Source of the DNA: an uncultured Methanoregulaceae archaeon
GTDB taxonomy: Archaea; Halobacteriota; Methanomicrobia; Methanomicrobiales; Methanospirillaceae
Length of the DNA stretch: 64,000 nucleotides
Direction: 5' to 3'
Assembly: GCA_963841015.1 (NCBI GenBank)
Contig: CAWJAX010000005.1
Location: 224,001-288,000, forward strand
Of the stretch, positions 6,314 through 57,300 are shown one piece after another; positions within the stretch are counted from its first letter, which is position 1, and every line of letters begins with the position of its first letter. The notes beneath the pieces are model-generated. The model was not told where the DNA came from. It ran no database searches and saw nothing but the letters and a program-made list of their open reading frames with translations. Both the position numbers and the translations under genes were made by a program.

Positions 6314-6817
6314 TTAACTATCAGCTCCCTCGTTGTCAGAATAGGAAGACCCCACTGCATTGATAATATCTGCCCTTGCCAGAATTCCTACCAGTTTTTT
6401 CCCTCTCACTACGGGCAAGCGAACGATTCCTTCTTTGAGCATCAGTGCCGCAGCTGCCTCGATATCCATTTCTTCTGTTGCGGTGATTACGCGACGCGTC
6501 ATTACCTTTTTTGCCGGCATGTCTCCGATGTTGCGAAGTGCATGTTTTGTTTTCTCCCAGTTGATGTACTCGCGGATGGGGATCTCGATAACCTCAAAGG
6601 GAGATGGAAGCCAAAGGTCATCGGAGATCCTTTCAGATTCAAGGAGCGAGATCAGATCAGATTCTGTGAGCATACCAACAAGTTCCGAACCTTCCATGAC
6701 CGGAAGCCCACCGATATGGTGCTTCCGCATTAAACCTACTGCGTCGCGGAGGGATGTTTCCGCAGTGCATACAACCGGGTCTTTTGTCATCGCATCTTTT
6801 ACCAACATAGTATTCAC
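6314..6817 (-). CDS. CBS domain pair protein
   Basis: Two CBS repeats (VKDAMT...IGGLPV...LVGMLTESD; VMT...RLPVV...LVGILARADI). Confidence 0.9.
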   Translation of the reverse strand: MNTMLVKDAMTKDPVVCTAETSLRDAVGLMRKHHIGGLPVMEGSELVGMLTESDLISLLESERISDDLWLPSPFEVIEIPIREYINWEKTKHALRNIGDMPAKKVMTRRVITATEEMDIEAAAALMLKEGIVRLPVVRGKKLVGILARADIINAVGSSYSDNEGADS

Positions 6818-7804
6818 CTACGGTAACATTCCTGCCCCAATCAGTCCATCCTGTTCTTTCAGGCTGCACATAAGGTTCATATTCTGAATCGCCTGGCCAC
6901 TTGCACCTTTCACGAGATTGTCTATGGCAGATATTGCCACAATCCGTAATCCTTCACTTTCGACCATGACATCACAGAAATTGCTTCCGCGGACCGCCGC
7001 AAGGGAGGGCTTCTGATACCGCACAAAGTATTCACCTTTGTAGAAGTCGCGGTATAGTTTCTCGACTTCTTTTTGCTCAAGAGGTTCATTGAGCAGGATG
7101 TGGGCCGTTGTCAGGATCCCCCGATTAACCGGCACAAGATGGGGGGTGAAATAGCATTTCGCTTTTGACCCGAGCCAGGCAAGCTCCTGTTTCATCTCAG
7201 CAAGATGGCGGTGGGTTGTCCATTTGTAGGGTCCGATATTGTCACCTACATTCGGATAGTGCGTGGTTGCGGAGGGATTGTCCCCGGCACCACTCACCCC
7301 GGTTTTCGAGTCGAAGATTACCGTGTGAGCATATTTTGCCAGGGGGGCTGCCGCAAGAGTTGCCCCGGTTGGAAAACACCCGGGGTTTGCAACGAACTTT
7401 GCATTGATACAGTCCTTCCGGTGAAGCTCAGGGATACCATAGGGAGCCGGGAAATAATCCGAGTGGATGACACCGTACACCTTCTCAAAGATCTCTTTTG
7501 GTAAACGGTAGTCGGCACTGAGATCCACTACTTTTATTCCCCTCGATAACAGCCTGCCAGCATAGGTCATTGCAGCTGTGTGAGGAACTGCAAGAAATGC
7601 AACGTCCGCATCAATGGCATCAATATCCGGGTTTTCAAATTTGAGATCGGTAAATCCTTTGAGGTGGGGATGAACCTGATCAAGGGGTGTTCCCGCAAGT
7701 TTGCGGGAAGTAGCACAGGTAACCTTTGCGGTGGAGTGGTGAACGAGGAGGCGTATCAGCTCACCACCGGCATAACCGGAAGCCCCGATAATCGCAATTT
7801 TCAT
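6818..7804 (-). CDS. argC: N-acetyl-gamma-glutamyl-phosphate reductase
   Basis: [37 protein letters not shown]. Confidence 0.95.
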
Positions 7805-10875: not shown

Positions 10876-12141
10876 ATGAGCGAGGCAGTACAGGAAAAAT
10901 TATTCGGCATGGAACTGGAAAAAGGGCGCTGGATCCTTGTCATCCTTGGCATGATCATCAACCTGTGCTTAGGCGCTGTTTATTCATGGAGCGTGTTTGT
11001 CGGTCCGCTGACGAACTACTTCACCAAAGATCTGGGCCAGGTTGTCTCCGCCAGTGAAATCCTGTTGCCGTTTTCCGTCTTTCTGGCATTCTTTGCAATA
11101 GCAATGCCGTTTACCGGTAAATATATCGAAAAATATGGCCCAAGGAACATAACCATCGTGGGGGGGTGTCTTACCGGGCTTGGCTGGCTCCTCTCGTCGT
11201 TTGCAGGCTCTGTCCAGTGGCTCTACATCTTCTACGGGGTGATTGCCGGTATTGGCGTTGGCATAGCTTATGGAGTCCCGGTTGCCGTTGCAGCCCGCTG
11301 GTTCCCTGATCGCCGTGGACTGGCAGTTGGACTGACCCTGCTCGGGTTCGGATTCTCTGCACTGCTTACTGCCAATATTGCAGGATTCCTCATCGGTGCT
11401 ACAGGGGTCATGAACACATTCCGGGTGTTTGGTATTGCATTTGTTATCCTGATCGTCGTTCTCGCACTGCCCCTGAAATTCCCTTCAGCCGGGTGGAAAC
11501 CTGCCGGATGGATACCTCCTGCCCCAGCGGCCGGTCAGGCAGTCATCTGCGAATTCAAACGCGAGCAGATGCTTAAAACCACCACATTTTACGCTCTCTG
11601 GACCTGCTACTTTATTGGCTGTCTGGCCGGGCTCATGGCAATTGGCATTGCAAAGCCTGTCGGGGTCGATATCGGTGTTGAGGCTGGACTTGCTACCATG
11701 CTCGTTGGTGTCTTTGCTGTCTTCAACGGTTTTGGGCGCCCGGTCTTTGGCACCCTTACTGATAAGCTGACACCTCGCAACACAGCGATGTTATCATTTA
11801 TACTCATCGCATTCGCATCCCTTATAATCTGGCAGATTCCGTCCGTTGCGGTATATATCATTGCTTTCGCTATCCTCTGGGGCTGTCTTGGTGGATGGCT
11901 TGCTATAGCACCAACTGCTTGTGGTAGTTTCTTTGGTACCTGTGATTATCCTCGTTGCTACGGAGTCCTGTTCCTTGCATATGGTGCAGGTGGCATTGTA
12001 GGCCCGCAGTTGGCCGGTTTCATTAAAACATCAACTGGATCATACATGGGTGTGTTCCCCTATGTTCTCGTACTTGCGATAATCGGGCTGGGGATCGCAT
12101 TCGCTCTCTTAAAACCGCCAAAAGCACCCCAGAAAAACTAA
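10876..12141 (+). CDS. MFS transporter, oxalate/formate antiporter (OFA) family; possible acetate/carboxylate uptake
   Basis: About 12 TM segments, YSWSVF, WFPDRRGLA, NGFGR motifs; 25 bp downstream of acs. Confidence 0.85.
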   Translation: MSEAVQEKLFGMELEKGRWILVILGMIINLCLGAVYSWSVFVGPLTNYFTKDLGQVVSASEILLPFSVFLAFFAIAMPFTGKYIEKYGPRNITIVGGCLTGLGWLLSSFAGSVQWLYIFYGVIAGIGVGIAYGVPVAVAARWFPDRRGLAVGLTLLGFGFSALLTANIAGFLIGATGVMNTFRVFGIAFVILIVVLALPLKFPSAGWKPAGWIPPAPAAGQAVICEFKREQMLKTTTFYALWTCYFIGCLAGLMAIGIAKPVGVDIGVEAGLATMLVGVFAVFNGFGRPVFGTLTDKLTPRNTAMLSFILIAFASLIIWQIPSVAVYIIAFAILWGCLGGWLAIAPTACGSFFGTCDYPRCYGVLFLAYGAGGIVGPQLAGFIKTSTGSYMGVFPYVLVLAIIGLGIAFALLKPPKAPQKN

Positions 12142-12146
12142 TATTT

Positions 12147-13256
12147 TTATCCACGCTCTGCGTGATATATGCGTTTTCGCTGGGCCATCCGGTAGCCGGA
12201 AACCACAAGAACCGTATCGCCGAACTCAGCATCAAGCACCGGATCTCCCGTATCAACATATATTTGAGGTGTTTCACGGAGTTTGTGCGGTGTGGCAACC
12301 ACAATAATATTTCCGATTCCCACCCGTCGTACAATGCGGGCACTTATCTGCTGGTTGCCCCGGCCAAGAATGAATCCCTGTGCTCCGATTGGACTGATAA
12401 GAATTTTTGCTTCCTGTCCCTGTTCAAGTAAAGCCCAGAGGGTTTTTTCATCGATATCGAGGGCAATAGTATTCCCGTTTTTTACCGCATCTACACCAAG
12501 TAGGGTTTTATTCACCCCGAGTTCGCGGGCGATGGCTTCAGTTGTTGTCCCTGCGCCGATGATATAGAGAACATCCGGAATCATTATCTCGTGAAAAAAC
12601 CGGGCGATTTCCCCTTTTGCCCGTTCCTCATCGCTTTCTTCAAATATTTGCTTAGGGAGCTGCACCTTTCCTTCAAGAGCAGGGGTGCGGGCAATACCAT
12701 GTAATCTTGTTTTCAGCTCTCCTGCACGGTACGCATCCTCATCCACATCCATCACTTCAGAATCCCTCAGCGATTCTTTCCGATATCCGGCCACGATCTC
12801 CGCTGCTGTAACCGGATCGATGGCAAATACCGCCGAGAACATCTTGACACCCGCGGGAATCCCCAGAATCGGCAGATTCCTGCCCACCGCATCAAAGATG
12901 TGCCTCGCGGTCCCGTCACCACCACAAAACAGGATCAGATCAACACCGTCTTTCAGGAACGTCTGTGCTGCCCGCCGGGTATCCAGAGCGCTGCTTTCAC
13001 CGGTGAAATGATAAAGCACCTGATACTTTTGTATTCCTGCTTCCCCGAGAGCATCCTCACCCATTGCACCCGAACAGGTAACAAAATCCAGATTTTTATC
13101 GTGTGACAGGAGTGCAAGCGTAATATGAGCCCGGTTTTTTGCGAGCGGTAATGCCCCGCGACGGCGGGCTTCCTCCACATTGCCGTCGGTTCCCTTGAGC
13201 CCTACTGCACCCCCCATACCAGCAATAGGGTTGACGAGAAACCCGATGCGTTTCAT
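12147..13256 (-). CDS. ATP-NAD kinase / AcoX-like family protein
   Basis: MKRIGFLVNPIAGMGG..GLKGTDG, GGDGT, GIPAGVK, GRGNQQ. Confidence 0.85.
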   Translation of the reverse strand: MKRIGFLVNPIAGMGGAVGLKGTDGNVEEARRRGALPLAKNRAHITLALLSHDKNLDFVTCSGAMGEDALGEAGIQKYQVLYHFTGESSALDTRRAAQTFLKDGVDLILFCGGDGTARHIFDAVGRNLPILGIPAGVKMFSAVFAIDPVTAAEIVAGYRKESLRDSEVMDVDEDAYRAGELKTRLHGIARTPALEGKVQLPKQIFEESDEERAKGEIARFFHEIMIPDVLYIIGAGTTTEAIARELGVNKTLLGVDAVKNGNTIALDIDEKTLWALLEQGQEAKILISPIGAQGFILGRGNQQISARIVRRVGIGNIIVVATPHKLRETPQIYVDTGDPVLDAEFGDTVLVVSGYRMAQRKRIYHAERG

Positions 13257-18579: not shown

Positions 18580-18649
18580 TATCCATTTTTTAATGAACTG
18601 ATCCTGCACGGACAGATACCTTTAACCGGCCGTGTGCATACTCAATGCT

Positions 18650-19513
18650 ATGAGCCCTGCACCAATACAACCGCTTATAGCGCCAGACTGGAATGAGATC
18701 TGGAAGGCACGGCAGTGCTTGCACGAGTCATCGAAGCATTCCGATGATCCCTCGCATAACTGGGACAAACGGGAAAATGCTGAACGCTACGATTCCACTT
18801 CCCGCAGTGAATACGATGACCGTGTCCGGATTACAATCGCTTGTCTTGACATCACGAAAAATTCCCGGGTGCTGGATATCGGGGCGGGGCCGGGAACCCT
18901 CTCTATCCCTCTCTCCCCTCGAGTGAAGAAGATTACCGCGGTAGAGCCCGGGGCCGGCATGGTGGAGATCCTCAGGGAGCATGCTGAGCGGGAGAAATTA
19001 CACAATATCACCTGCGTGCAGAAGACCTGGGAGGAGATAGATCTCTCCTCTGACCTCACTCCCCCGTTTGACATTGTCATCGCTTCCCTCTCCCTGACCA
19101 TGCATGATATCCGGGAAGCGCTCCGGAAGATGGATGCTGCCTCCTGTGGCTCCGTTCACCTCTTCTGGTTCGTAGACATGCCCTTCTGGGAGCGGATGTA
19201 TGCCGATCTCTGGGAGCCCCTGCACGGGAGCCCGTATCATGCCGGGCCGAAAGCCGATTGTCTCTTCGGGGTCCTCTACCAGATGGGAATTTACCCGGAC
19301 GTCACCATGCTGCCGCTCTCAAAGGAGTACCGTTTCGGGAGTCAGGAGGAGATGCTCGGGTTCTTCCGGAAGCGGTTTGGGGCTAAGACACCACAGCAGG
19401 AGCGGATCGTGGATGCCTATGTCACCCCGCAAATACGTCAGCAGGGCGATGAAGTGGTTATCTCCGGGGATTCGACATTTGCACATCTGAGATGGAGAAC
19501 GACAAAGTCCTGA
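18650..19513 (+). CDS. Class I SAM-dependent methyltransferase
   Basis: VLDIGAGPG, AVEP, FDIVIAS motifs. Confidence 0.9.
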   Translation: MSPAPIQPLIAPDWNEIWKARQCLHESSKHSDDPSHNWDKRENAERYDSTSRSEYDDRVRITIACLDITKNSRVLDIGAGPGTLSIPLSPRVKKITAVEPGAGMVEILREHAEREKLHNITCVQKTWEEIDLSSDLTPPFDIVIASLSLTMHDIREALRKMDAASCGSVHLFWFVDMPFWERMYADLWEPLHGSPYHAGPKADCLFGVLYQMGIYPDVTMLPLSKEYRFGSQEEMLGFFRKRFGAKTPQQERIVDAYVTPQIRQQGDEVVISGDSTFAHLRWRTTKS

Positions 19514-19589
19514 AAACGGTTCTCGCAAATCGAACAACTCCTTTTAGAATACTTCTCCAGTCCACGACTCTGACGGACCCACATACTAC

Positions 19590-19603
19590 AAAGCGTATAT
19601 AAT
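19590..19603 (+). promoter_or_regulatory. BRE/TATA-like promoter
   Basis: AAAGCG-TATATAAT, about 20-25 nt before the structured segment. Confidence 0.55.
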
Positions 19604-19621
19604 TTTGAGAGTAATGCGTGG

Positions 19622-19791
19622 AGCAGCAGTGTGGCAATAGATCTGTGCACTCACAGGATTGTCACCGATATATTCACAACAAGGTAAGGAGCTGTTGCTA
19701 TCGAAATCTGTCAGACACAAAACAAAAACAGTGTAGCAGAGGAATACCAGCAGCCGTACGAAACCCTGGCGGGAAATAGTCGAGGCCGTCC
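19622..19791 (+). ncRNA. Candidate structured RNA or long 5' leader
   Basis: Stems read by eye: 19622-29/19692-99, 19631-38/19658-65, 19642-47/19652-57, 19707-18/19731-40, 19747-50/19766-69. Confidence 0.4.
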
Positions 19792-20271
19792 ATGACCCGC
19801 GGGAGAAGACCGCTCATGGCCCTCCGCGAAGCCGTGCTGATCGCAAAGAAGCGTGGTGAGACTAGGCAGTTCATGTACGAGCCGGGCATGATCTGCAATT
19901 TCGTGATCTACAGCCCCGGTATCGTGGCCCATGTCCGGATCAAACGGGTCACCCGCGTCCACTGCGACCATGCATGGATCGAGTGTGAGGCAGCCGATGC
20001 ACTCGCAGGACTTCGGGCCATCGCATCCGGGTCCGGGATCTCCCGCGAGCTCTGGGTTTTCCTGCCCCGTGGGGCATTCCGGTTTTACCGCGTCACGGAT
20101 ACCGGGCTTGTCGAACTCAGTCGTGATGGATTGGTGATGCCCGAGAAACCGAAGTCGGCACCCGTAGCGCTGCCACCCATAGCCGGGTTGTCAGCTATAC
20201 TCCCGGTCCAGAAACCCCTTCCGGAATCCACCGTCGGTGAAATTCCCTCAGAAAAGGGTCATGGGGAGTAG
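19792..20271 (+). CDS. Hypothetical protein, possible PD-(D/E)XK restriction-endonuclease-like fold with low-complexity tail
   Basis: ATG start, basic 159-aa ORF; helix then CNFVIY...VAHVRIKR strands resembling Hjc-like motifs II/III; RELW...FRFYRV. Confidence 0.6.
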   Translation: MTRGRRPLMALREAVLIAKKRGETRQFMYEPGMICNFVIYSPGIVAHVRIKRVTRVHCDHAWIECEAADALAGLRAIASGSGISRELWVFLPRGAFRFYRVTDTGLVELSRDGLVMPEKPKSAPVALPPIAGLSAILPVQKPLPESTVGEIPSEKGHGE

Positions 20272-20607
20272 GATCCCCCTTTCTTAAAATGCCCTGATTG
20301 GCAAACGGAGCCTGTATAACAGACTTTGCCCGCTCCCCCTTTTCGGGCATCCGAAAATAGATCGAATTGAGGGAAAAACGGTACAATGAGGTTATTTTCC
20401 TCCACGAAAAAGGCCCGGATTGATCTTCCTTCTCTCGGTACTTTGGAAATATCTAAATAGAATCAATTGGGTGGAGAAAGTCCACTGAAACCGTGCCGGG
20501 GTTTGAGTGATTTAAGGAGGATCTGAGGATCCGTCAGGTCAGGCCAAACATTTCCAAAAAATTTTAGCGCAAAAAAATTTTGTTGAATTTTTTTAAAAAG
20601 ATCTCGT

Positions 20608-21741
20608 TTACCCAACCCGCTTGATCCTTCCCATCGCTTCTTTCAACCGCTCCATCGACGTCGCATACGAAAGCCGGATCCATCCCGGTGCATAGAACGC
20701 ACTACCCGGGGTTGCTGCCACGTGGCCATTCTCGAGCCATCGGGAGGCAACTTCCATATCGTCGCCGGTAACTTTCACAAAGGCATAGAACGCCCCATCA
20801 GCAGGTGCTGTCTCGTAACCCATACGGTTCAGCTCGGCAATGATGTATTTCCGCCGCCGGTCGAACTCTTTACGCATCTCTTCGACGCAGGACTGGTCAC
20901 CTTTGAGTGCGGCAACCCCGCCCCACATCGCAAAGGTGGTCGCCTGGCTGATGGTGTGCTGCTGTACCTTGGACATCTCTGCGATGATCTCCTTGGGGGC
21001 AACTGCGTATCCGAGCCGCCAGCCGGTCATGGCATAGGCTTTCGAGAAGCCGTTGATAGTAATCGTCCGCTGCGCCATGTCGCCGATTGCGGCAAGCGAG
21101 AGGTGTTCTTTACCATAGACCATCTTCTCGTAGATCTCATCGGACATCGCATAAATGTCATAATCCGTGCAGAGATCCGCAACGAGCTTTAAGGACTTTG
21201 TGTCGAAAACAGCACCCGTAGGATTCGATGGGGAGTTGATCACGATCATCTTGGTCTTTGCATTCACCCGCTCGAGAAGAGAGTCGTCGAGCTGGAAGGT
21301 TTTTACGTTGATCGCGTGCTTCACGATCTTCCCGCCAGCGATCTGGACACAGGGCTCATACGAGACCCAGGCCGGGGTGAGGATAATCGTCTCGTCGCCC
21401 GGGTTCAGGACTGCTTCGCATGCCTCGTAGATGGCCTGCTTGGCCCCACTGGAGACGATGACCTGCTGGGGGGTGCAGGGAAATTTGTTCTCCCGGATGA
21501 TCTTCGTGACGATGGCGCTCGTCAGCTCGGGGATGCCGTTGCTCGGCGCATAATGGGTCTGGCCCCGGTTCAGGGCATCAATGCAGGCATCCGTGATATG
21601 CCGGGGGGTATCGAAATCGGGCTCGCCGATAGACATGCTGATAACATCGATTCCCTCTGCCTGCATCTTTTTTGCCCGGTTGGAGATCGCGATCGTTGCC
21701 GATTCGACAACACCTGCGATCTTCTCCGAGAGAGGCCTCAT
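20608..21741 (-). CDS. PLP-dependent aspartate aminotransferase family (class I)
   Basis: [32 protein letters not shown]. Confidence 0.9.
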
Positions 21742-27676: not shown

Positions 27677-28765
27677 TCAGACCGGTTCATAGAGCGTCGT
27701 ACGGCGTTTGAGTGTCCGTCCGATATCCTCTGCAATCCGCTGCATCTCAGAAGGATCAAGGTAATCTGTATTGATTGCACCAGCCCCTTTTGAAATGCTC
27801 TCTTCGAACATCGTGCCGCCAAGATCGTTGGCACCTGCAACCAAACTTAACTGGGCCATCTTGATGCCTTCTTTTACCCAGGAAACCTGGATATTCTTAA
27901 AGTTGTCCAGAAAGAGGCGTGCTACAGCGACCATCAGGAGATCTTCTCTTCCTGTCGCTCCTGCCCGCGCTTTTCCAGCACGGAAGAGGGGAGTGTTCAT
28001 GTGGATAAACGAAAGAGGGACAAATTCTGTAAACCCGCGCGTTTCATCCTGAATTTCACGCAGGATTGCAAGATGGTGCACCCGGTCTTCATCAGTCTCA
28101 CAATGACCATACATAATTGTTGCAGTGGTTGGAATGCCCAGGGCATGCGCCTCCCGGATAATGCGAATCCATTCATTTGTTGAAACCTTCTGTGCACAGA
28201 TTTTTTTACGGACTGAATCAACAAGGATCTCTGCTGCCGTGCCGCACATTGACCCGAGTCCTGCCGCTTTCATGTCCATCAGCACATCATGAGTGCTCAT
28301 ATTGCTCTTTTTAGCAGCATAGGCAACTTCCATCGGATTGCTGGCATGAAGATGGATGCCAGGTGCAGCCTCATGAATCCAGCGGTAGACATCACAATAG
28401 GATTGGGCATTAAAATCCGGATGGAGCCCGCTGACCGTACAGATTTCGGATACTTCGCGCATTTTTGCGAGGGACGCCTTTTTCTGGATCTCGGACTTGT
28501 CGTGATAATAGATACCGTCATCACCAGGTTTTTTTGAAAAGCCGCAGAAACCGCAGGCATTGACGCAGAGATTGGTCACATTGATGTTCTGGTTCCTGAC
28601 ATAGGTAACTGCGTCACCAACCCGTCGTTCACGCATCTCGTCTGCAGCTGCTGCGATTTCCCAAATCTGTCGATTCCGGACCTGAAACAGATCCAGTGCA
28701 TCGTCGTTACTCATACGGTGGCCGGTTTTGATATCATCAAGCAGAGTCCGCAGCTGATTATCCAT
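27677..28765 (-). CDS. cofH: FO synthase subunit 2 (radical SAM), paralog 1
   Basis: NVTNLCVNACGFC, GTAAEIL, ATIMYGH, FTEFVPL, GANDLGGT, RTTLY. Confidence 0.9.
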   Translation of the reverse strand: MDNQLRTLLDDIKTGHRMSNDDALDLFQVRNRQIWEIAAAADEMRERRVGDAVTYVRNQNINVTNLCVNACGFCGFSKKPGDDGIYYHDKSEIQKKASLAKMREVSEICTVSGLHPDFNAQSYCDVYRWIHEAAPGIHLHASNPMEVAYAAKKSNMSTHDVLMDMKAAGLGSMCGTAAEILVDSVRKKICAQKVSTNEWIRIIREAHALGIPTTATIMYGHCETDEDRVHHLAILREIQDETRGFTEFVPLSFIHMNTPLFRAGKARAGATGREDLLMVAVARLFLDNFKNIQVSWVKEGIKMAQLSLVAGANDLGGTMFEESISKGAGAINTDYLDPSEMQRIAEDIGRTLKRRTTLYEPV

Positions 28766-29236: not shown

Positions 29237-30322
29237 TTAGATCAGTTTATACAGGGTTGTCCGCTCCTGCAGGGTTCGCCCAATGTCTGACACTATCCGT
29301 TCCATGACCACTGGATCAAGGTAATCTGCATCGATTGCCCCTGCATTTACAGATATATCATCGGAGAACATGGTGCCGGCAAGATCATTGCCTCCGGCGA
29401 GTAACGACATCTGAGACATCTTTTGTCCAAGCTTCCCCAACGGGACCTGAATATTATTGAAATTATCGAGGAACAGCCGGGAAACAGCGGTCATCAGCAG
29501 ATCTTCCCGACCTGTCGCGCCTGCACGGGCAATACCCTCTTTAAAAAGCGAGGTATTGGTGTGGATATAGGTCAGAGGAACCAGTTCAGTAAAGCCATGT
29601 GTTTCATCCTGAATCGTGCGCAGTATGCCAAGATGCTCAGCCTGGTCCTTTGCAGTTTCACAGGAACCGTACATAATAGTCGCTGTCGAAAATATCCCCA
29701 GCGCGTGTGCTTCTTTGATAATTCGGACCCATTCAGCTGTACCCAATTTCCGGGGACAGATCACTTTTCTCACAGAGTCCACAAGGATCTCTGCCGCAGT
29801 ACCCTGTAATGACCCAAGACCAGCAGCCTTCAATCGTTCAAGAACTTCAACACTGGAAAGATTGCTTCCTGATGCCGCATAGGAGACTTCATCCGGGCTG
29901 AACGCATGGAGATGAATATGCGGTCCTACCTCATGGACCCATGAGATTAGATCACAGTAAGTGTCGATGGTAAATTCTGGATGCACGCCGCTCAGTGGAC
30001 AGATCTCAGTAACACCACGCTTGAGGGCAAGACGTACCTTTGCCTGAATTGCCAGCTTATCATTGCAATAGGCGCCATCATCATCAGCACTCCTCCCAAA
30101 GCCGCAGAAACCACAGAGATTCTTACAGATATTGGTCACATGGAGGTTCTGGTTTTTCACATACGTTACAATGTTGCCTGCTTTGCGCTCCCGAACCTCA
30201 TCTGCAGCAGATATAATTTCGAAAACATTCCGGTCCCGTATTTCCAGAAGCCGGGTTGCCTCGACCTCAGTAAGACGATGTCCACCGAGTACATCTGATA
30301 GGAGTGTTGAAATATCTGACAT
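29237..30322 (-). CDS. cofH: FO synthase subunit 2 (radical SAM), paralog 2
   Basis: HVTNICKNLCGFC, GTAAEIL, ATIMYG, RTTLY. Confidence 0.85.
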   Translation of the reverse strand: MSDISTLLSDVLGGHRLTEVEATRLLEIRDRNVFEIISAADEVRERKAGNIVTYVKNQNLHVTNICKNLCGFCGFGRSADDDGAYCNDKLAIQAKVRLALKRGVTEICPLSGVHPEFTIDTYCDLISWVHEVGPHIHLHAFSPDEVSYAASGSNLSSVEVLERLKAAGLGSLQGTAAEILVDSVRKVICPRKLGTAEWVRIIKEAHALGIFSTATIMYGSCETAKDQAEHLGILRTIQDETHGFTELVPLTYIHTNTSLFKEGIARAGATGREDLLMTAVSRLFLDNFNNIQVPLGKLGQKMSQMSLLAGGNDLAGTMFSDDISVNAGAIDADYLDPVVMERIVSDIGRTLQERTTLYKLI

Positions 30323-38424: not shown

Positions 38425-38846
38425 GCGATGTCCTCCCTCTTTGAAATATGGGTATTTTTCATTATTAATCATATTGAATTGCACCCGATTTTGTATTTCA
38501 TTCTAAGATTTCAGACGAAACCTGAGAAAGACGGATTTACGTAGAGAAAATCCTGATTAACTTGTGACCATAGAGAGGAAGAGTTGGAAAAAATCTTTTA
38601 AATGATAAATGTTTAATGGTTGAAAAATGAACTAATAATCTCTAGGGATGGATTATGGATATGTGGGGCAGAGTCCCGATGCCATTGTTCTTCCTTTGGG
38701 TCATTTAAGCAGATTACTGCCTGTACCAATTATCTTACCTGATGGATTAGTCCGTGTATTCGCATAAGTGATGATATTCAAATGGTTCATGTGCATTGTT
38801 CCTGTCACAAAAAGAATTCCGGGCAACGTTGGAGGGAGATTAAGGA

Positions 38847-40890
38847 ATGTTTGAACTCGCAATAGTTATTGGAATAAGTGTTTTCGCACTCGTCCTCGCG
38901 GCAATACTTGCGCGTAGTGTCCTAGCACAGGATGAAGGTACGCCTAAGATGCGTGAGGTCTCCGATGCGATCAGGGTGGGTGCAGAGGCATTCATCAAAC
39001 GACAGTACTCGACAATCGCCATTCTGGCAATCGTACTTGCCGTTGTAATCTTTGGGGTTTATTTCCTCACAGGACAGCAGGGACTTGCTACCTATACGGC
39101 ACTTGCGTTCATCGTCGGGGCGACCTGTAGTGCACTTGCCGGTATTATCGGCATGTCTGTTGCCGTAAGGACAAATATCCGCACGGCAGCAGCAGCCCAG
39201 ACCAGTGACGGAAAGGCGCTTGACATCTCGTTCAGAGGCGGTGCAGTATCGGGTCTTACCATCACCGCGCTGTCGCTTCTTGGTGTCTCCCTTACCTACT
39301 ATGCACTCGGTGCAGACCCGCAGACCACCCCCTTCATTATTGTCGGATTCGCCTTTGGTGCCTCGTTTGTGGCACTCTTTGCCCAGCTCGGTGGCGGGAT
39401 CTATACCAAGGCCGCCGATGTCGGTGCAGACCTTGTCGGTAAAGTCGAAGCCGGCATACCTGAAGATGACGTCCGGAACCCGGCTGACCATCGCTGACCT
39501 TGTCGGGGACAATGTCGGGGATTGTGCCGGCCGTGGCGCTGACCTGTTCGAATCCACAGCTGCCGAGAATATTGGTGCCATGATCCTCGGTATCGCACTC
39601 TTCCCGGTCTTTGGTGCTGCCGGTGTTCTCTTCCCGCTTGTCATGTGTGCACTGGGTCTCCTTGCCAGCATGATCGGTATCATCTGCGTCCGCGGAAAGG
39701 ACGGCGCAGACCCGATGGATGCAATGAACTTAGGGTATGATATCACAGCAGCCATCTCTGTCGTGTTCTTTTACATTGGCACCATGTGGCTTCTCGGGAA
39801 CATCTGGTTCTTTTACGCAGGTATTGTCGGTATCGTGTTATCCGTTGCATTCCTCCGGGTAACCCTGTATTATACGGACCACCACTATCGCCCGGTACAG
39901 GAAATTGCCGATGCATCGGAAACCGGACCAGCGACCAACATCATTACCGGTTTCTCGGTCGCTCTTGAGACAACCGCTATCCCGGCACTCCTTATTGGCG
40001 GTTCCTTACTCCTCTCCTTCTGGCTCGGTGCCCAGAGTGGTATCCCGTTCGGAGGTCTCTATGGAACTGCAGCTGCAACCATCGGAATGCTCATGGTCTG
40101 TGCCTACGTACTTGCCATGGACTCCTTTGGCCCCATCGCTGACAACGCCGGGGGTATCGTTGAGATGAGCCAGGCACCGGAATCCGTCCGCAAGAGGATG
40201 GACAAGCTCGACGCAGCCGGCAATACAACAAAGGCACTCACCAAAGGATATGCCATAGGCAGTGCTGCACTCGCAGTCTTCCTGCTCTTAAACGCTTACA
40301 TGTCCGAAATCAGCCATCTCATCCACCAACCCTTTGAAGTCATAAATGTTGCATCAATCCCGGTATTTGTCGGCGCCCTGTTCGGAGCAATGCTCATCTT
40401 TGTCTTTGCTGGCCTTGCCATCCGTGCAGTTTCCAGGACCGCACAGTATGTGATTGAAGAGGTCCGTGTCCAGTTCAGGGACCCGGGTATCATGGCCGGG
40501 ACCAAGAAACCCGACTATGCCCGTGTGATCGATATCACTACCCTCGGTGCACTAAAGAATATGGTGCTGCCTGGTGCAATTGCCATCGCGTTTCCCATCA
40601 TCATCGGCGTGACCATGAAATATGAAGCCCTTGCAGGGTTTCTGGTGGTCGGCACAATCACCGGCATACTCCTTGCATTGATCCTCAACAACGGGGGTGG
40701 TGCCTGGGACAATGCCAAGAAATACATAGAATCCGGCGCCCATGGCGGCAAGGGCAGCGAAGCGCACAAAGCGGCAGTTATTGGTGACACGCTTGGTGAT
40801 CCCTGCAAAGACACTGCTGGACCATCCCTTCACGTGCTCATTAAGCTGCTCGCAACGCTCTCGCTCGTGCTCGCGCCACTTTTTATTTAA
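38847..40890 (+). CDS. hppA: Membrane proton-pumping pyrophosphatase, K+-independent type; frameshift near 39487
   Basis: GGGIYTKAADVGADLVGKVEAGIPEDD, DLVGDNVGD, DNAGG, GNTTK (Lys = K+-independent), GDTLGDPCKDT. Confidence 0.92.
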
Positions 40891-52126: not shown

Positions 52127-53420
52127 TCACCTGAACCATGTTTTTAACCATTTTGCTTCCATCTGCTTTACATCAAGGTCCTTTAACCCGTTCAGTCGCG
52201 AATCCTTGAGCACAACTTCACGGATCTTGCCCGTGTTTGAGTCAAACCACATCTCTTTTGTTCTGCCATACCGCCCACGGCTTACCACACGTGTGTTGAT
52301 TACACCGAGCATGTTTAACTCAGAGATGAGATCGGTAATGCGACGATGAGTGAGTACATCAAGTTCAATTCTCGGTGCAATGTCCTGATATATACGTGAA
52401 ACTTCCCCGCTGGTAAATATATTCTGTCCGAGCCTGCTCGAGTATGAGCATCGAGAACAAGATAAGTTTACTCTGGGTGGGAAGTGTTGCAATGCATTCA
52501 ATCATACTATCAGTTTCGATCTTTGCCTGTGCCTGCTTAACGTGCTCTTCTTTGACCAGATCTGATTCATCGCGATCAGCAAGTTCGCCGGAAATTCTCA
52601 AAAGGTCAAGGGCCCGACGGGCATCTCCATGTTCCTGTGCTGCAAGAGCGGAACAGAGCGGGATTACCCCTTCTGCTATGGCATCCTTCATGAATGCCGC
52701 ATCAGACCGTTGTGCAAGAATGTCGACAAGCTGTGGAGCATTGTAAGGTGGGAATACAATCTCTTCCTCAGAGAGCGATGAAAGGACACGGGGATCCAGA
52801 AAATCTTTGAAACTCAGATCGTTTGAGATGCCAATGATGCTCACCTTGGAATTTTTTAGATCGGTGTTGATTCGCGTAAGATTATACAGCGTGTCATCAC
52901 CGCTCTTTTTTACCAGCTTATCAATCTCATCAAGCACAATGACCAGCACACCGCCACCAGCTTCGAGTTGATTTTTGAGCTCGGCATATACTTGATCGGT
53001 GGGCCAGCCAGTCATGGGGATATGAAGCCTGGTCTTATCACTGGCGGCTTCATCCATTTCATCAAGACTTTTTGCTATTTGAGCAAGTACACGGTATTGG
53101 GTATCGATCACTTCGCAGTTTAAATGGACAATCCGGCATATGGTGCCCATCTTGCTACTTGCCTTTTCAAGTTCTGATCCCACATACCTGACACAGGCTG
53201 TCTTGCCGGTCCCGGTCTTTCCATAAATTAGGATATTTGAAGGGGTTTCGTTTCTCAGAGAGGGAGCGAGGATTGACGCCACATTATCAATCTGGGGCTT
53301 ACGATGGGGAAGAATCTGAGGCCGGTACGAGTGTCGGAGAACTTCGCGATCGCGGAATATCTTGTTATTGGCAAGGTATTTTTTAAATAACCCTGTTGAG
53401 GGATCTGCTGTTTCGGGCAT
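52127..53420 (-). CDS. cdc6: Orc1/Cdc6 replication initiator, frameshift near 52433
   Basis: YGKTGTGKT, VLDEID, HGDARRALDLLR; winged helix (LNMLGVI...SRGRYGRT) in the shifted frame. Confidence 0.95.
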
Positions 53421-53488
53421 AGTGACACTAAGGATCAGACACTTAGTGACATAAGACTAAAAAACGATCGGTTTATCCCTTTTATAAA

Positions 53489-53508
53489 CCCCTTTGTTTC
53501 CAGTGGAC
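53489..53508 (-). repeat. ORB1 origin recognition box
   Basis: Reverse complement GTCCACTGGAAACAAAGGGG matches the archaeal ORB consensus with G-string. Confidence 0.88.
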
Positions 53509-53674
53509 CGAGTGCAATTTACAATTGAATTCCTTAATAAAGCCCAAAAATTTTAATTTAATCTTTATTATTGATTTGATTGAAACAAAATAAAAAAGCA
53601 ATATCTGGTTTAAATGTCAGAAATAAACATGATTTTAAAGATTATCCGATTCCTTTCAATTTTTGGGGAGGGGG

Positions 53675-53696
53675 ACCCCTTGGTTTCGTGTGGAAA
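53675..53696 (-). repeat. ORB2
   Basis: Reverse complement TTTCCACACGAAACCAAGGGGT. Confidence 0.9.
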
Positions 53697-53857
53697 TCAT
53701 TAGTATGACTTAAGATCGTTTAAAATCTCAATAAAATGAGCTTATTTAGATCTGGATTTTTAAATATATAAACATTTCAACACCAGATATCCTTTTCTTG
53801 TTTGATAAAAAAGGCAATAAACAATTATTTTACTGAAAAGGAGACCCTGGAACATAG

Positions 53858-53879
53858 TTTCCACACGAAACCAAGGGGT
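53858..53879 (+). repeat. ORB3 (perfect inverted copy of ORB2)
   Basis: TTTCCACACGAAACCAAGGGGT; with ORB2 it flanks a ~160-bp AT-rich DUE. Confidence 0.9.
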
Positions 53880-53982
53880 GGCTTCAGAACTTAAACCTCC
53901 AGATCTTACTATTGAAAAATAGTAATAGGTGTCAATCTCATCATCATACTATATTAATGGAAAAAATACTAATCAACATTAA

Positions 53983-54476
53983 ATGAACCCTAAACACATC
54001 CAGACAATACCTGTTCACGCAGCAATAATTACTGTTTCAAGTACGAGGACAAAGGAAAATGATACCAGTGGAAAGACTATCTGTGATATTTTAACATCGG
54101 CAAGAATTCAGATAGAGCACTATTCAATTGTAGGTGACCGGATAGAAGAAATCCGTTCAGAGATTTTTCTGGCATTGAAAAAATCCAACTGTGTAATTCT
54201 GAATGGCGGCACCGGTCTTACCCATGATGATTGCACAATAGAAGCTGTTTTACCGCTGCTCGATAAAAAAATCGATGGGTTCGGTGAGCTGTTCAGGATG
54301 AAAGCTATCAGGAAATTGGCACTTCTTCAATGCTCTCCCGAGCACTTGCTGGCACTTGTCATGGCAAGGCAATCTTTTGCATTCCTGGTTCAACCCCTGC
54401 CGTCACCCTTGGTACAAAGGAACTTATTGTTCCTGAGATCGCGCACATTCTATCGCATGCAAATAAGATTTCATAA
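53983..54476 (+). CDS. Molybdenum cofactor biosynthesis protein MoaB/MogA family, frameshift near 54302
   Basis: ITVSSTR..D.SG, NGGTG...DDCT.EA, GFGELFR, then LSRALAG...IPGS in the shifted frame. Confidence 0.88.
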
Positions 54477-55135: not shown

Positions 55136-57300
55136 TCACCCAAAACGATTGAGTGTTGACTGACCTGAAGATGAGTTCATATCCTCATCTTTCACAGGGA
55201 AAACACCCTTTTTTCGCAGAATCTGATCAAATATCTGCTCTGCCACACCCAGTCCCAGTAGTTTTGTCACCTCTTCAATTCCCCGCGTCAGTATCTCGTC
55301 CGGTGTTGTCATTCCGTTATTGAATAATCTTCTGGCACGGACCCTGCCGATCCCACGTAACCGGATAAGCGGCAGCAGTTCTCGCCGTGTGCCGTTTTTC
55401 ATACAAATTTCGTATTCCCTCACTTTCGGATGAAAAACCGATGCAAACATTCGCGTCAGCTCCGCGCTTGCGTGCAGAAGCCAGGTAACACTTTCCACCA
55501 TCCCATAAATATCACCTGGCCCAACAGAATATCGCTCACAGATTTTTGTGTCCGATAACTCATCTGTCCAGTCAGAAAGAAGCATCGCCGTTTTTAGCGC
55601 ACGGTAATAAGCCTCTGCAGCCTCTTCATCCTGGGGCAGCATGATCCAGAGATCTTCCCCATTATCCTCTATCATACGGGTTAGTGCTCCGATGTCAGTA
55701 TTCCGGACATAGAGTTTGGGCATATCCGGTGTACTGCAAATTACCTGAAGAAGACCCAGATCGGTATAAAATTCTTTCTCGCGCAGGGTACTGACAATCA
55801 TAGCAGCGCTCCGTGGATCGATATAGAGTTTTGAGACAAGCGTACCAAACTCAGTTGAACCAAGATGTTCTCCAACCTCTACTACCATATCTGAAGACAC
55901 GAGAAATGCCAGTGCAGCATTCACGGCACGCTGTATGAGGCGTCCCTGTCGGTTTTCGTGAACATAGAATGTCCGGTTCATAAACGAGGTGAGCTCGTCA
56001 CGGTTTTTAGCAAAACCGGATGCGATTAGGGAAAGTATATGGGTATAGAGTGCTGCAGGTTCAGCTATTTTAGAGTGCACGTCCTCTGGTGGAGCTTCGA
56101 TATACCATTCAAAGAGCTCCTCTACCTGCCCTTGATCTTTGGCAATGAGAACTGCCTCACCATAGGGATCGAGCCGTGGACGACCGGCTCTCCCTGCCAT
56201 CTGGTGATATTCGCTCGCCGGAATTGGCTGCATTCCCTCACCAGCAGTAAACCGATTGTAATCCCGGATAATCACACGCCGTGCAGGAAGGTTAAGTCCC
56301 GCAGCAAGTGTTGGGGTAGAAGAGATGCATTTGATCAGGCCCTTCCGGAACCCTTCTTCTACAACTGAACGCTCGGGCCGGCCCAATCCGGCATGGTGAA
56401 AGCTGCACCCCTTGCTACGCAGGAAGCAAGTGATTTTCCCATATCCGTCTCTGCACCCCTCTGGATCTTCTCGGCATATGCAACGAGTGCAGGATCTTCG
56501 CTTTTTATAGCCGCAGCAGCGCGTTTTGCAAACGCCTCAGCATTACGACGTGATGATACAAAGACAAGACATTGACCTCCTTCGGCTATTGTGTCAAGAC
56601 AGAGGTTGAGATCATCGTAATTCTTTGATACCGCTTTTATGGAGCGGGTATTGTCACGGAAATAAATGCAGTCATTGAAAAAGACCCCTTGTCTCAGGTC
56701 AACAGGGCGCCAGGTACTAGTCACAAGTTCCGCATCGAGCCAGCTGGCAAGTTTATCAGGATTTCCAATAGTTGCAGAAAGTCCGATAATCTGCAGCGCG
56801 GGATTCCGGAACCGCATCTTGGCAATCACCATCTCAAGTGTCGGGCCCCGTCCCAGCGAGTCAATCATGTGAACTTCATCGACGACCAGAAGGGTGATAT
56901 CTGCAATCCATTGTGCATTGTTGCGCAGGAGTGAATCCACTTTTTCACTGGTTGCAACTATGATATCATTTCTTGCCAACATATCGTCGCGACGGTCAAA
57001 ATCACCGGTCGCGATACCAACCCTCACCCCTTTATTGCCAAACTCCTCAAACTTTTCACTTGCAAGTGCTTTGAGGGGAACGATATAGAGGCATTTCCCC
57101 CCGTTTGCGATCGCGTGGTGCATAGCCATTTCGGCAACCAGGGTCTTTCCGCTTGCCGTAGGGATGGCAACGAGCGCATTTTTCCCAGTAAGGATACCTT
57201 TCTCCACGCATTCGGCCTGCGGGGGGTAAAGCTCTGAAATGCCAGACCTGGTATACCTCTGCTTGAGATTAGTTGGGATTGCAAGGTCCTGAATTTGCAT
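55136..57300 (-). CDS. hel308: Ski2-like ATP-dependent DNA helicase Hel308/Hjm, frameshift near 56399
   Basis: PTASGKT, VVDEVH, LSAT, (F)HHAGL split by the indel, [21 protein letters not shown]-terminal Hh[11 protein letters not shown]. Confidence 0.92.

Follow-up and report, generated by a model that had tools for sequence, protein, structure and literature searches.

A conserved Methanoregulaceae unit combining the gene for a protein of predicted Hjc-like fold with a conserved non-coding 3' element

The stretch of 64,000 nucleotides (nt) from an uncultured Methanoregulaceae archaeon studied here (contig CAWJAX010000005.1, positions 224,001 to 288,000), which as a whole is called the window and to which all coordinates refer, contains a small gene that is accompanied by its own promoter, a predicted 5' leader, and a conserved non-coding 3' element. 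These parts are housed in an interval of 1.09 kb between positions 19513 and 20608, with a class-I methyltransferase gene (18632-19513, + strand) as the left neighbour and an aspartate aminotransferase gene (20608-21741, - strand) as the right neighbour. An initial annotation, made from the sequence alone, described the interval as a self-contained cassette between convergent genes, and the convergent arrangement is correct, the methyltransferase gene ending at 19513 and the aminotransferase gene at 20608. The open reading frame (ORF; 19792-20271, + strand) encodes, as annotated, a protein of 159 amino acids (aa), starting with the ATG at 19792, ending at 20271, and including the segment CNFVIY..VAHVRIKR. 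Residues 1-118 comprise an RGR-x-P arm and a predicted Hjc-like domain, and residues 119-159 form a tail. A Shine-Dalgarno (SD)-like GAGG (19782-19785, + strand), reading GGAGG in most relatives, is located 6 nt upstream of the ATG, inside GC-rich palindromes.

The promoter (19582-19621, + strand) is composed of a B recognition element (BRE) rich in A, a TATA box (TATATAAT, 19596-19603), and a conserved initially transcribed region, forming the sharp left edge of the conserved unit. The TATA box had been annotated at exactly this position, and the A-rich BRE indeed precedes it. The 22-nt promoter word ACTACAAAGCGTATATAATTTT occurs once in the window when up to three mismatches are allowed, with 0 occurrences expected from 100 shuffles. 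The TATA spacing predicts a transcript start near 19622, giving a 5' leader of about 170 nt (19622-19791, + strand). The ORF is succeeded by 336 nt of non-coding sequence, in which the 3' element of about 250 nt (20272-20530, + strand) is composed of a short 3' untranslated region (UTR), ending in an oligo-T run (20340-20343, + strand; TTTT here and 5-6 T in most relatives), which is followed by about 185 nt of conserved sequence.

A genome scan for the unit, covering 185,579 species genomes, yielded 24 loci (cited by L numbers where needed), nearly all from Methanoregula or from Methanoregulaceae metagenome-assembled genomes (MAGs). The unit of about 0.95 kb, comprising promoter, leader, ORF, and 3' element, recurs as one conserved block in no fewer than three genomic contexts, which bears out the proposed self-contained cassette. 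Homology to the window begins at 19582, immediately ahead of the BRE, and ends at about 20482-20532 in each of the three main contexts, and the flanking DNA is unrelated. The site between the methyltransferase and aminotransferase genes is occupied in 13 of the 24 loci with both flanks present and in 2 with the methyltransferase gene only. A second site (5 of the 24 loci) is characterised by genes for RadC, rubrerythrin, a LamG protein, and a glutaredoxin/thioredoxin-reductase-like protein upstream and a fumarate-reductase-like gene downstream, while the third context is found in one locus (L015), where the unit follows archaeal pilus genes. Three distant paralogues among the 24 loci lie elsewhere, beside a PIN gene, a DDE transposase, or unknown genes; Fic, PIN, and DDE transposase genes adjoin the gene in L020, L023, and L024, which belong to contexts other than the window site.

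Comparing the flanks among homologues, which had been suggested together with the annotation, recovers the promoter motif in the window and 21 of the 24 loci, at a distance of 199-227 nt upstream of the ATG. Of 24 assessable sources (L019 being too short to assess), 22 have the 3' element downstream of the ORF and on its strand. The promoter identity to the window is 75-95% in 19 loci, where the neutral expectation, calculated by Jukes-Cantor from the synonymous divergence (dS), is 53-79%. Since promoter, leader parts, ORF, and 3' tail recur as one block in the relatives, the unit is non-random, and it is this conservation in which the non-randomness lies. The features seen in the single sequence are no more than chance, the leader having a minimum free energy (MFE) of -50.5 kcal/mol (z = -1.52, with 15 of 200 shuffles folding as well) and the region 19400-20700 containing 2 terminator-like sites against a shuffle mean of 1.4, which is no excess.

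The ORF is a real gene and founds an unannotated family, so far seen only in Methanoregulaceae. The ratio of nonsynonymous to synonymous divergence (dN/dS) has a median of 0.216 over 210 pairs of fetched genes, indicating purifying selection, with dS between copies ranging from 0.24 to 0.73. A word-indexed search resulted in 203 homologues among 460 candidates, the named ones all being listed as "hypothetical protein" from Methanoregula, and a profile search of 1.84 billion cluster representatives (50% identity) gave 337 matches at E <= 1e-3 and 198 at E <= 1e-10. Searching with a distant family member led to Methanoregula records again. The multicopy Methanoregula hypotheticals that the initial annotation had mentioned can be recognised in this diversified set of 203 homologues and 337 cluster representatives. 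Residues 1-118 are strongly conserved, with M1, R3, G4, A14, A18, R21, G22, E86, W88, F99, E108, and G113 being invariant or near-invariant, and the Pro-rich stretch of 40 residues at the C-terminus is variable both in its length and in its sequence and is apparently disordered. The 159-aa protein has no match in Pfam (E <= 1), NCBIfam, or PHROGs, ten chosen longer family members show no Pfam domain, and no fused or longer homologues were found at 280-2000 aa, which is weak evidence. Judged by titles and abstract openings, full-text literature searches surfaced no description of this Hjc-like family.

The AlphaFold (AF2) model derived from 86 diverse family members reaches a predicted local distance difference test score (pLDDT) of 88.3 and a predicted template modelling score (pTM) of 0.73; a model from 22 close relatives was poor (pLDDT 48.9). 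The predicted topology is alpha-beta-beta-beta-alpha-beta-beta-beta, with helices at residues 8-21 and 60-75 and strands at residues 23-26, 37-41, 44-52, 83-90, 96-101, and 106-109. The first Foldseek matches in the PDB are archaeal Hjc structures (PDB IDs 2wcw, 2eo0, 2wiw, 1gef, 1ob8, and 4tkd) with a probability of 0.99-1.00 and a best E value of 2.6e-4, the target-normalised template modelling (TM) score being 0.46-0.57, the TM-scores overall about 0.4-0.57, and the root mean square deviation 4-6 Å. The search against viral models places Hjc, RecU, and PD-(D/E)XK proteins on top, and in a protein-language-model atlas the nearest named clusters carry PF01870 Hjc or Mrr_cat. At the sequence-profile level, none of the 86 members matches PF01870 at E <= 0.1, and a profile search of the PDB sequences gave only chance tail-fibre matches with E values of 0.27 or worse. 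The Hjc-like nuclease fold guessed in the initial annotation is thus borne out at the fold level, as the PDB, the viral models, and the atlas all name Hjc, but finds no counterpart in the profiles of Pfam and the PDB sequences. On the strength of the model, we assign to the protein an archaeal Hjc / PD-(D/E)XK core of the form alpha-beta-beta-beta-alpha-beta.

The canonical PD-(D/E)XK site, as laid out in PMC3424549, combines an Asp located at the N-terminal end of core strand 2 with a Glu-x-Lys in strand 3. By the predicted strands, the corresponding positions in the window protein are N36 and R49-I50-K51, with K51 at the lysine position of the E-x-K motif, as in Hjc. N36 is invariant in 22 of 22 close relatives. 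Of the 86 members, 54 carry D and 12 carry N at position 36. At position 49, R is found in 52 and K and C in 7 each, none of the six commonest residues being acidic, and at position 51, K is found in 37 and R in 24. The initial annotation had noted that the usual acidic catalytic residues are missing, and with N36 and R49 in place of the canonical Asp and Glu, this holds; by the model, the canonical metal-binding Asp and Glu are lost in the window protein.

The N-terminal arm is a second conserved feature of the protein, reading T-R-G-R-R-P in the window and containing R3 in 79, G4 in 84, R5 in 60, and P7 in 68 of the 86 members. The AT-hook has an Arg-Gly-Arg-Pro core flanked by basic residues, and the M-T-R-G-R-x-P arm may be comparable to this core. 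Since position 6 is P in only 27 members and P7 is present in 68, the arm resembles an AT-hook mostly with one extra residue.

Among the known systems, archaeal Hjc (Pfam ID PF01870; PDB IDs 2wcw, 1gef, 2eo0, and 1ob8) is the closest, sharing the alpha-beta-beta-beta-alpha-beta core at a similar size of about 120 aa. Unlike Hjc, the window protein lacks a profile match to PF01870 or PDB chains, carries N36 and R49 at the Asp and Glu positions, and adds the conserved MTRGRxP arm and the Pro-rich tail; furthermore, its family is multi-paralogue and lineage-restricted, whereas Hjc is a universal archaeal housekeeping gene. Inactive PD-(D/E)XK domains, such as the RecC nuclease-like domain (PMC1185551), have likewise kept the fold and lost the metal-binding residues. 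These domains are parts of larger repair machines, whereas the window protein is stand-alone and small, has its own cis elements, and is presumed to be inactive. The EndA tRNA-splicing endonuclease is a weaker fold match (PDB ID 5x89, E value 1.4e-2, probability 1.00), being ranked well below Hjc. With its PD-(D/E)XK-like fold, EndA cuts RNA by a Tyr/His/Lys site without the canonical motif, according to PMC3424549; no such trio is apparent among the invariant columns of our family, and no bulge-helix-bulge-like target was identified.

Some observations concern individual family members. The distant paralogues P0190, P0212, P0231, P0245, P0148, and P0175 have a second basic motif, (I/V)RYLRRRNR-like, after a Pro-rich linker, which is absent from the window protein. 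Two loci show an insertion of about 530 nt (L005 6367-6898 and L021 6367-6890) within the part coding for the Pro-rich tail, equivalent to window positions 20158-20202, which alters the C-terminus of the protein and leaves the Hjc-like domain intact; in L005 it contains nested inverted repeats (6416-6448 / 6824-6848) and is similar to a miniature inverted-repeat transposable element (MITE). In L013, L016, and L017, the Hjc-like gene appears as split tblastn segments or with an in-frame stop, and several neighbour genes in these loci and in L007, L010, L014, and L021 are likewise split or interrupted, so that frameshift errors of the long-read MAGs are a more likely cause than pseudogenes. Two family-bearing contigs go by the names "Candidatus Omnitrophota bacterium" (L022) and "uncultured bacterium" (L011); both short contigs are probably mis-binned, as their genes group with Methanoregula and Methanomicrobiales rows.

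By sequence comparison, the 3' element is the more constrained non-coding partner of the gene. Its identity is 0.65-0.76 in distant loci, where the neutral expectation is 0.53-0.60, with the exception of L015 (0.60 versus 0.56). The initial annotation, in placing its emphasis on the leader, had under-weighted this tail, which is the better conserved of the two. The nhmmer profile of the 3' element matches the window at 20263-20528, and the element is kept by the paralogues L023 (E value 3.6e-10) and L022 (E value 7.8e-5), whose proteins are 51-53% identical to that of the window. Two or three GCCCGGATTG boxes are found in the 3' elements. In the window, the first box of this type (20291-20300, + strand) reads GCCCTGATTG, and the second (20413-20422, + strand) is an exact match. 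Over 20 tails, 38 copies of the motif C[CG]GGAT[TCG] lie on the + strand and 2 on the - strand, against an expectation of 1.9 per strand.

The 3' element also contains an internal repeat of about 100 nt, the boxes of which read (A/T)A(A/T)TAGnATCnATTGGGnGnAAAAA. Box 1 (20355-20378, + strand; AAATAGATCGAATTGAGGGAAAAA) is A-rich and TATA-like and belongs to the direct repeat D2 in a conserved block. Box 2 (20455-20478, + strand) reads AAATAGAATCAATTGGGTGGAGAA here and GAAATGTTTAATTAGCATCAATTGGGTGGAAAAAG in most relatives, and it resembles a second BRE/TATA, which would imply a promoter role. Near the right edge, a GGATC-N4-GATCC hairpin is located at 20519-20532 (+ strand), and similar GGATCC-type palindromes are present at the right edge in several loci.

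Other candidate features of the tail were tried and rejected. A small protein encoded on either strand does not fit, the open frames differing between loci, with 1-nt indels shifting the frames and the ATG in GGTACAATGAG being absent in 5 of 20. For a structured RNA, RNAalifold gives weak consensus folds (-4.5 kcal/mol on the + strand and -5.4 kcal/mol on the - strand), two candidate hairpins pair like their shuffles (77.3% versus 76.6%), and for a hairpin located after CAATTGG, the mean energy of -6.3 compares with -5.2 for the shuffles, with 3 of 23 at a fraction <=0.1. The terminator-like GGAGCCCG/CGGGCCCC stem, seen by eye, does not hold its register across loci. The motif GTCCACTGAAAC..GGGG could be read as an origin recognition box (ORB) of a replication origin, but its CCAC is not conserved in relatives and the window has only one exact and one three-mismatch match to it, the origin-like repeats lying instead beside orc1 at about 53.49-53.88 kb.

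We tentatively favour the reading, to which we assign a probability of roughly 40%, that the gene encodes a non-catalytic Hjc-like nucleic-acid-binding protein with binding sites in its own flanks. The locus would be one autonomous transcription unit for a small basic protein, which would have evolved as an offshoot of the archaeal Hjc / PD-(D/E)XK fold without the canonical metal-binding Asp and Glu. The protein, stand-alone and, by analogy with Hjc, probably dimeric, would bind nucleic acid and not cut it by the canonical mechanism, the nucleic acid being either branched or palindromic DNA or a specific sequence, through the Hjc-like core together with the N-terminal Arg-Gly-Arg-x-Pro arm. 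Its cognate sites would be the oriented GCCCGGATTG and ATCnATTGGGnGnAAAAA boxes within the 3' element, to which the leader's GC palindromes can perhaps be added, resulting in a self-regulated protein-plus-cis-element module. This reading builds on the reality of the gene, its fold, the loss of the canonical motif, and the co-conservation of promoter, ORF, and 3' element across contexts, from which we infer the binding without cleavage, the flanks as targets, the autoregulation, and the start and end of the transcript. If true, it would describe an archaeal case in which the Holliday-junction-resolvase fold was recruited to a non-catalytic, probably regulatory or architectural role, and the conserved flanks of about 450 bp would be a ready-made candidate target travelling with the gene.

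Several points weigh against this reading. An exact RGRP, as in the AT-hook, is found in only 27 of the 86 members. The counts of C[CG]GGAT[TCG] come from homologous copies, which are not independent of each other. The pairing of the ORF and the 3' element is not absolute, since the element is undetected in L024 and since L008 has a solo copy of its second half (12062-12212; nhmmer E value 1.4e-26) at a distance of 5.6 kb from the ORF. This solo copy follows an ABC-transporter ATPase gene, and the Hjc-like ORF of L008 is found without the usual promoter and adjacent tail. The Hjc residue positions were mapped from the predicted strands, the spacing, and the rule in PMC3424549, rather than from a residue-level superposition. 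Helix 2 is rich in acidic residues across the 86 members. At position 64, 47 members have E, and at positions 62, 66, and 69, E and D are found in 47 and 12, 39 and 12, and 31 and 23 members, respectively. E86 is shared by 85 members. In the Cfr10I-type site (PD-XXK-E), as portrayed in PMC3424549, a migrated Glu is part of the active site. Because acidic residues are common in helix 2 and E86 is conserved, the family may have such a migrated-Glu site, above all the 54 of 86 members keeping D36.

It is rather unlikely that we are dealing with an ordinary lineage-specific gene, the flanks of which are functionally unrelated to the protein. The 5' part would then be a strong promoter and UTR, for which the sharp edge at the promoter is expected as for any gene with a regulatory region, and the 3' element would adjoin the gene by coincidence, as a feature of its own such as a small RNA gene, a second promoter, or a terminator or insulator region. 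The BRE/TATA-like box 2 of the tail is consistent with a second promoter, but this putative promoter serves no consistent downstream gene, the neighbours lying on either strand or being absent. The oligo-T run, about 70 nt past the stop codon, would terminate the mRNA short of most of the conserved tail, and the solo tail of L008, 5.6 kb from the ORF and after the ABC-transporter gene, also points to an independent element. Against this independence, the tail accompanies the ORF through three contexts and is kept in the 51-53% identical paralogues while the neighbours change, and it has no RNA family match or supported fold on either strand.

The leader was described in the initial annotation as a multi-stem RNA of exceptional length. 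All the listed stem arms are found in place (AGCAGCAG at 19622 with CTGTTGCT at 19692, GTGGCAAT at 19631 with ATTGTCAC at 19658, TCTGTG at 19642 with CACAGG at 19652, ACAC at 19715 with GTGT at 19731, and CCAG at 19747 with CTGG at 19766), but the five-helix structure composed of them, scored on 17 aligned leaders, shows no covariation beyond shuffles, with 72.9% versus 72.0% of the cells being paired and 67 of 500 shuffles reaching this value. The length turns out not to be exceptional. The gap upstream of the ORF is 281 nt at a window median of 73 nt, and gaps of at least 250 nt occur at 9 of 63 crude gene starts, 8 other starts thus sharing this feature. Long leaders are common in methanogens, where PMC5378194 reports 24% of the 5' UTRs in Methanolobus psychrophilus to be longer than 150 nt and also cites long 5' UTRs for M. 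mazei. Compared with these, the window leader is of typical length and possibly has a stem masking the ribosome-binding site, as in Methanolobus psychrophilus; unlike the structured leaders of methanogens, it shows no defined family, ligand, or covariation-supported architecture.

The leaders form two types, with the window belonging to group A, and the two groups have sequence in common only in islands. The shared blocks are GGAGnTG..AT, CGCAGnnGAAC, and CCGGCCGG-type GC palindromes around the SD. Within the window type, the identity is 8-14 points over the expectation in distant loci and from 2 below to 18 above it in nearer loci, whereas towards group-B loci it is 0.52-0.59, which is no more than the neutral level of 0.56-0.57. 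The sole leader structure with some, modest comparative support is a 5'-proximal hairpin (19637-19669, + strand) with the stems P2' (19637-19642 / 19664-19669) and P3 (19643-19647 / 19652-19656) and the loop CACT. Group-B leaders have a different, long GC-rich hairpin at its position. Re-registered in this way and combined with the outer stem P1, the hairpin pairs 80.6% of the cells (shuffles, 78.1 +/- 0.7), has 11 double-change cells (shuffles, 4.8), and reaches a covariation score of 0.149 (shuffles, 0.114). Each of the three values is reached by 0 of 500 shuffles, although such an outcome can also arise from the relatedness of sequences in which no structure exists. The double changes at the pairs 20-53 and 25-48 occur in four sequences each, which by our reading of the alignment are four closely related rows. 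The hairpin is plausible from the aligned sequences, and the rest of the leader structure is unsupported. An upstream ORF in the leader, for which a frame of 53 codons is open in the window, was rejected, as 9 of the 17 group-A leaders have in-frame stops before the frame's own stop and the variable columns show no third-position excess (47/55, 40/56, and 40/51).

These leader results bear on the idea that the unit is an RNA-protein module, in which the leader of about 170 nt would be a structured cis-regulatory RNA recognised by the protein or another ligand. It might act as a protein-binding mimic, a thermosensor, or a riboswitch-like element and would control translation by alternative pairing of the CCGGCCGG-type elements around the SD. 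Beyond the revised hairpin and outer stem, this idea draws on the outer stem closing 11 of the 17 group-A 5' domains while all 5 group-B leaders fold the other long hairpin (by MFE), on negative leader z-scores in 17 of 22 cases (range -3.9 to +0.6), on one compensatory double change in the outer stem of L010 (pair 9-80), and on an RNAalifold GCUGU/ACAGC stem with 3 double changes. Three self-complementary GC elements are found around the SD, but the SD-masking and SD-freeing pairings include both compensated and broken pairs, being broken as often as compensated by eye, without a count. The consensus fold of all 23 leaders retains 5 pairs at -4.6 kcal/mol, and the Rfam 15 scan of 19000-21000 (E <= 10) gave only a chance long non-coding RNA match (E value 3.7) outside the unit. 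With the structure first proposed behaving like its shuffles, the double changes limited to four closely related rows, the group-B identity at the neutral level, and long leaders being common in methanogens, we consider this module improbable.

The surroundings of the unit are variable. At the window site, the distance between the ORF and the aminotransferase gene ranges from 0.33 to about 2.4 kb, with unrelated contents (DNA methylase, DUF5677, and unknowns), and some loci have insertions 5' of the promoter. The tree of the coding sequences (CDS) requires the locus to have changed at least twice. L001 and L002 have the leader type of the second site, yet their genes are nested among those of the first site (98/98 support), and L015 is the reverse mosaic; since these loci combine leader type and CDS clade crosswise, the sequences mark the cassettes as mosaics. 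The unit is present as a single copy in the window and in each fetched locus, and three MAGs have two loci each.

A selfish or mobile cassette with an active, non-canonical nuclease, which would cut or resolve DNA at sites in the flanks in the manner of a homing or site-specific recombination module, would explain the several loci and the hypervariable neighbouring DNA. The sharp-edged block (edges at 19582 and about 20505-20532) in at least three contexts, the adjoining DNA of variable length and contents, and the locus changes and mosaics of L001, L002, and L015 are in line with it, and D36 in 54 of the 86 members, together with E86 and the acidic residues of helix 2, could complete an active site; in the clade of the window, however, N36 and R49 are invariant. 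The small mobile element considered in the initial annotation is not supported, there being no conserved terminal inverted repeats, no target duplications found at the unit ends, no transposase or integrase in the unit, and no match in phage and plasmid collections by protein or DNA. A terminal inverted repeat at 19570-19583 / 20524-20537 (14 nt, 12 of 14 bases) was rejected, being found in the window lineage only and not conserved. The single copy in the window and in each fetched locus counts against the cassette as well, and the dS of 0.24-0.73 between copies argues against a recent spread; we regard such a cassette as clearly unlikely. Nothing points to a toxin-antitoxin pair or a defence system, PADLOC giving 0 matches for the protein and, among the 86 members, weak matches to 2 families with one member each (E values 6e-4 and 7.5e-3), while the unit has no second conserved ORF and the repeat scan of 19450-20650 found no short tandem RNA repeats.

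A further possibility, likewise one to which we give little credence, is that the Hjc-like protein and the 3' element of about 250 nt form an undescribed two-part system of Methanoregulaceae, where a degenerate junction-resolvase fold would be tied to the oriented array of repeated boxes and these would mark or perhaps create hot spots for the insertion and exchange of foreign genes. It would act as a recombination or integration platform or as a protein-plus-noncoding-RNA pair, unrelated to integrases and transposases, and the mosaics and the solo tail would be its footprints. No RNA or protein family explains the 3' element with its oriented repeats, and the genomes of Methanoregula show a hypervariable site of insertion. 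Should the module help to generate this variability, its interest would extend to the plasticity of archaeal genomes; if it does not, the family would be a further orphan restricted to its lineage, to which a fold can now be assigned.

Elsewhere in the window, an AT-rich gap of 562 nt (53420-53983) beside an ORC1-type gene (52368-53420, - strand) contains three ORB-like repeats TTTCCA(C/G)nnGAAAC(C/A)AAGGGG at about 53490-53512, 53670-53700, and 53857-53880, and from these motifs it is probably a chromosomal replication origin. The Hel308-type helicase (55139-57300, - strand) is present as two overlapping ORFs, with 56362-57300 aligning to profile positions 1-308 and 55139-56386 to positions 315-717, and the split sequence indicates a frameshift or sequencing error. 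The membrane pyrophosphatase ORF (39205-40887, + strand; region 38484-40887) aligns only from about profile position 221, after a gap of 720 nt, and the N-terminal part may lie in another frame or be lost. The adjacent CofH-type radical-SAM genes at 27680-28765 and 29240-30322 (- strand) form a tandem paralogue pair, as both score above the CofH cut-off.

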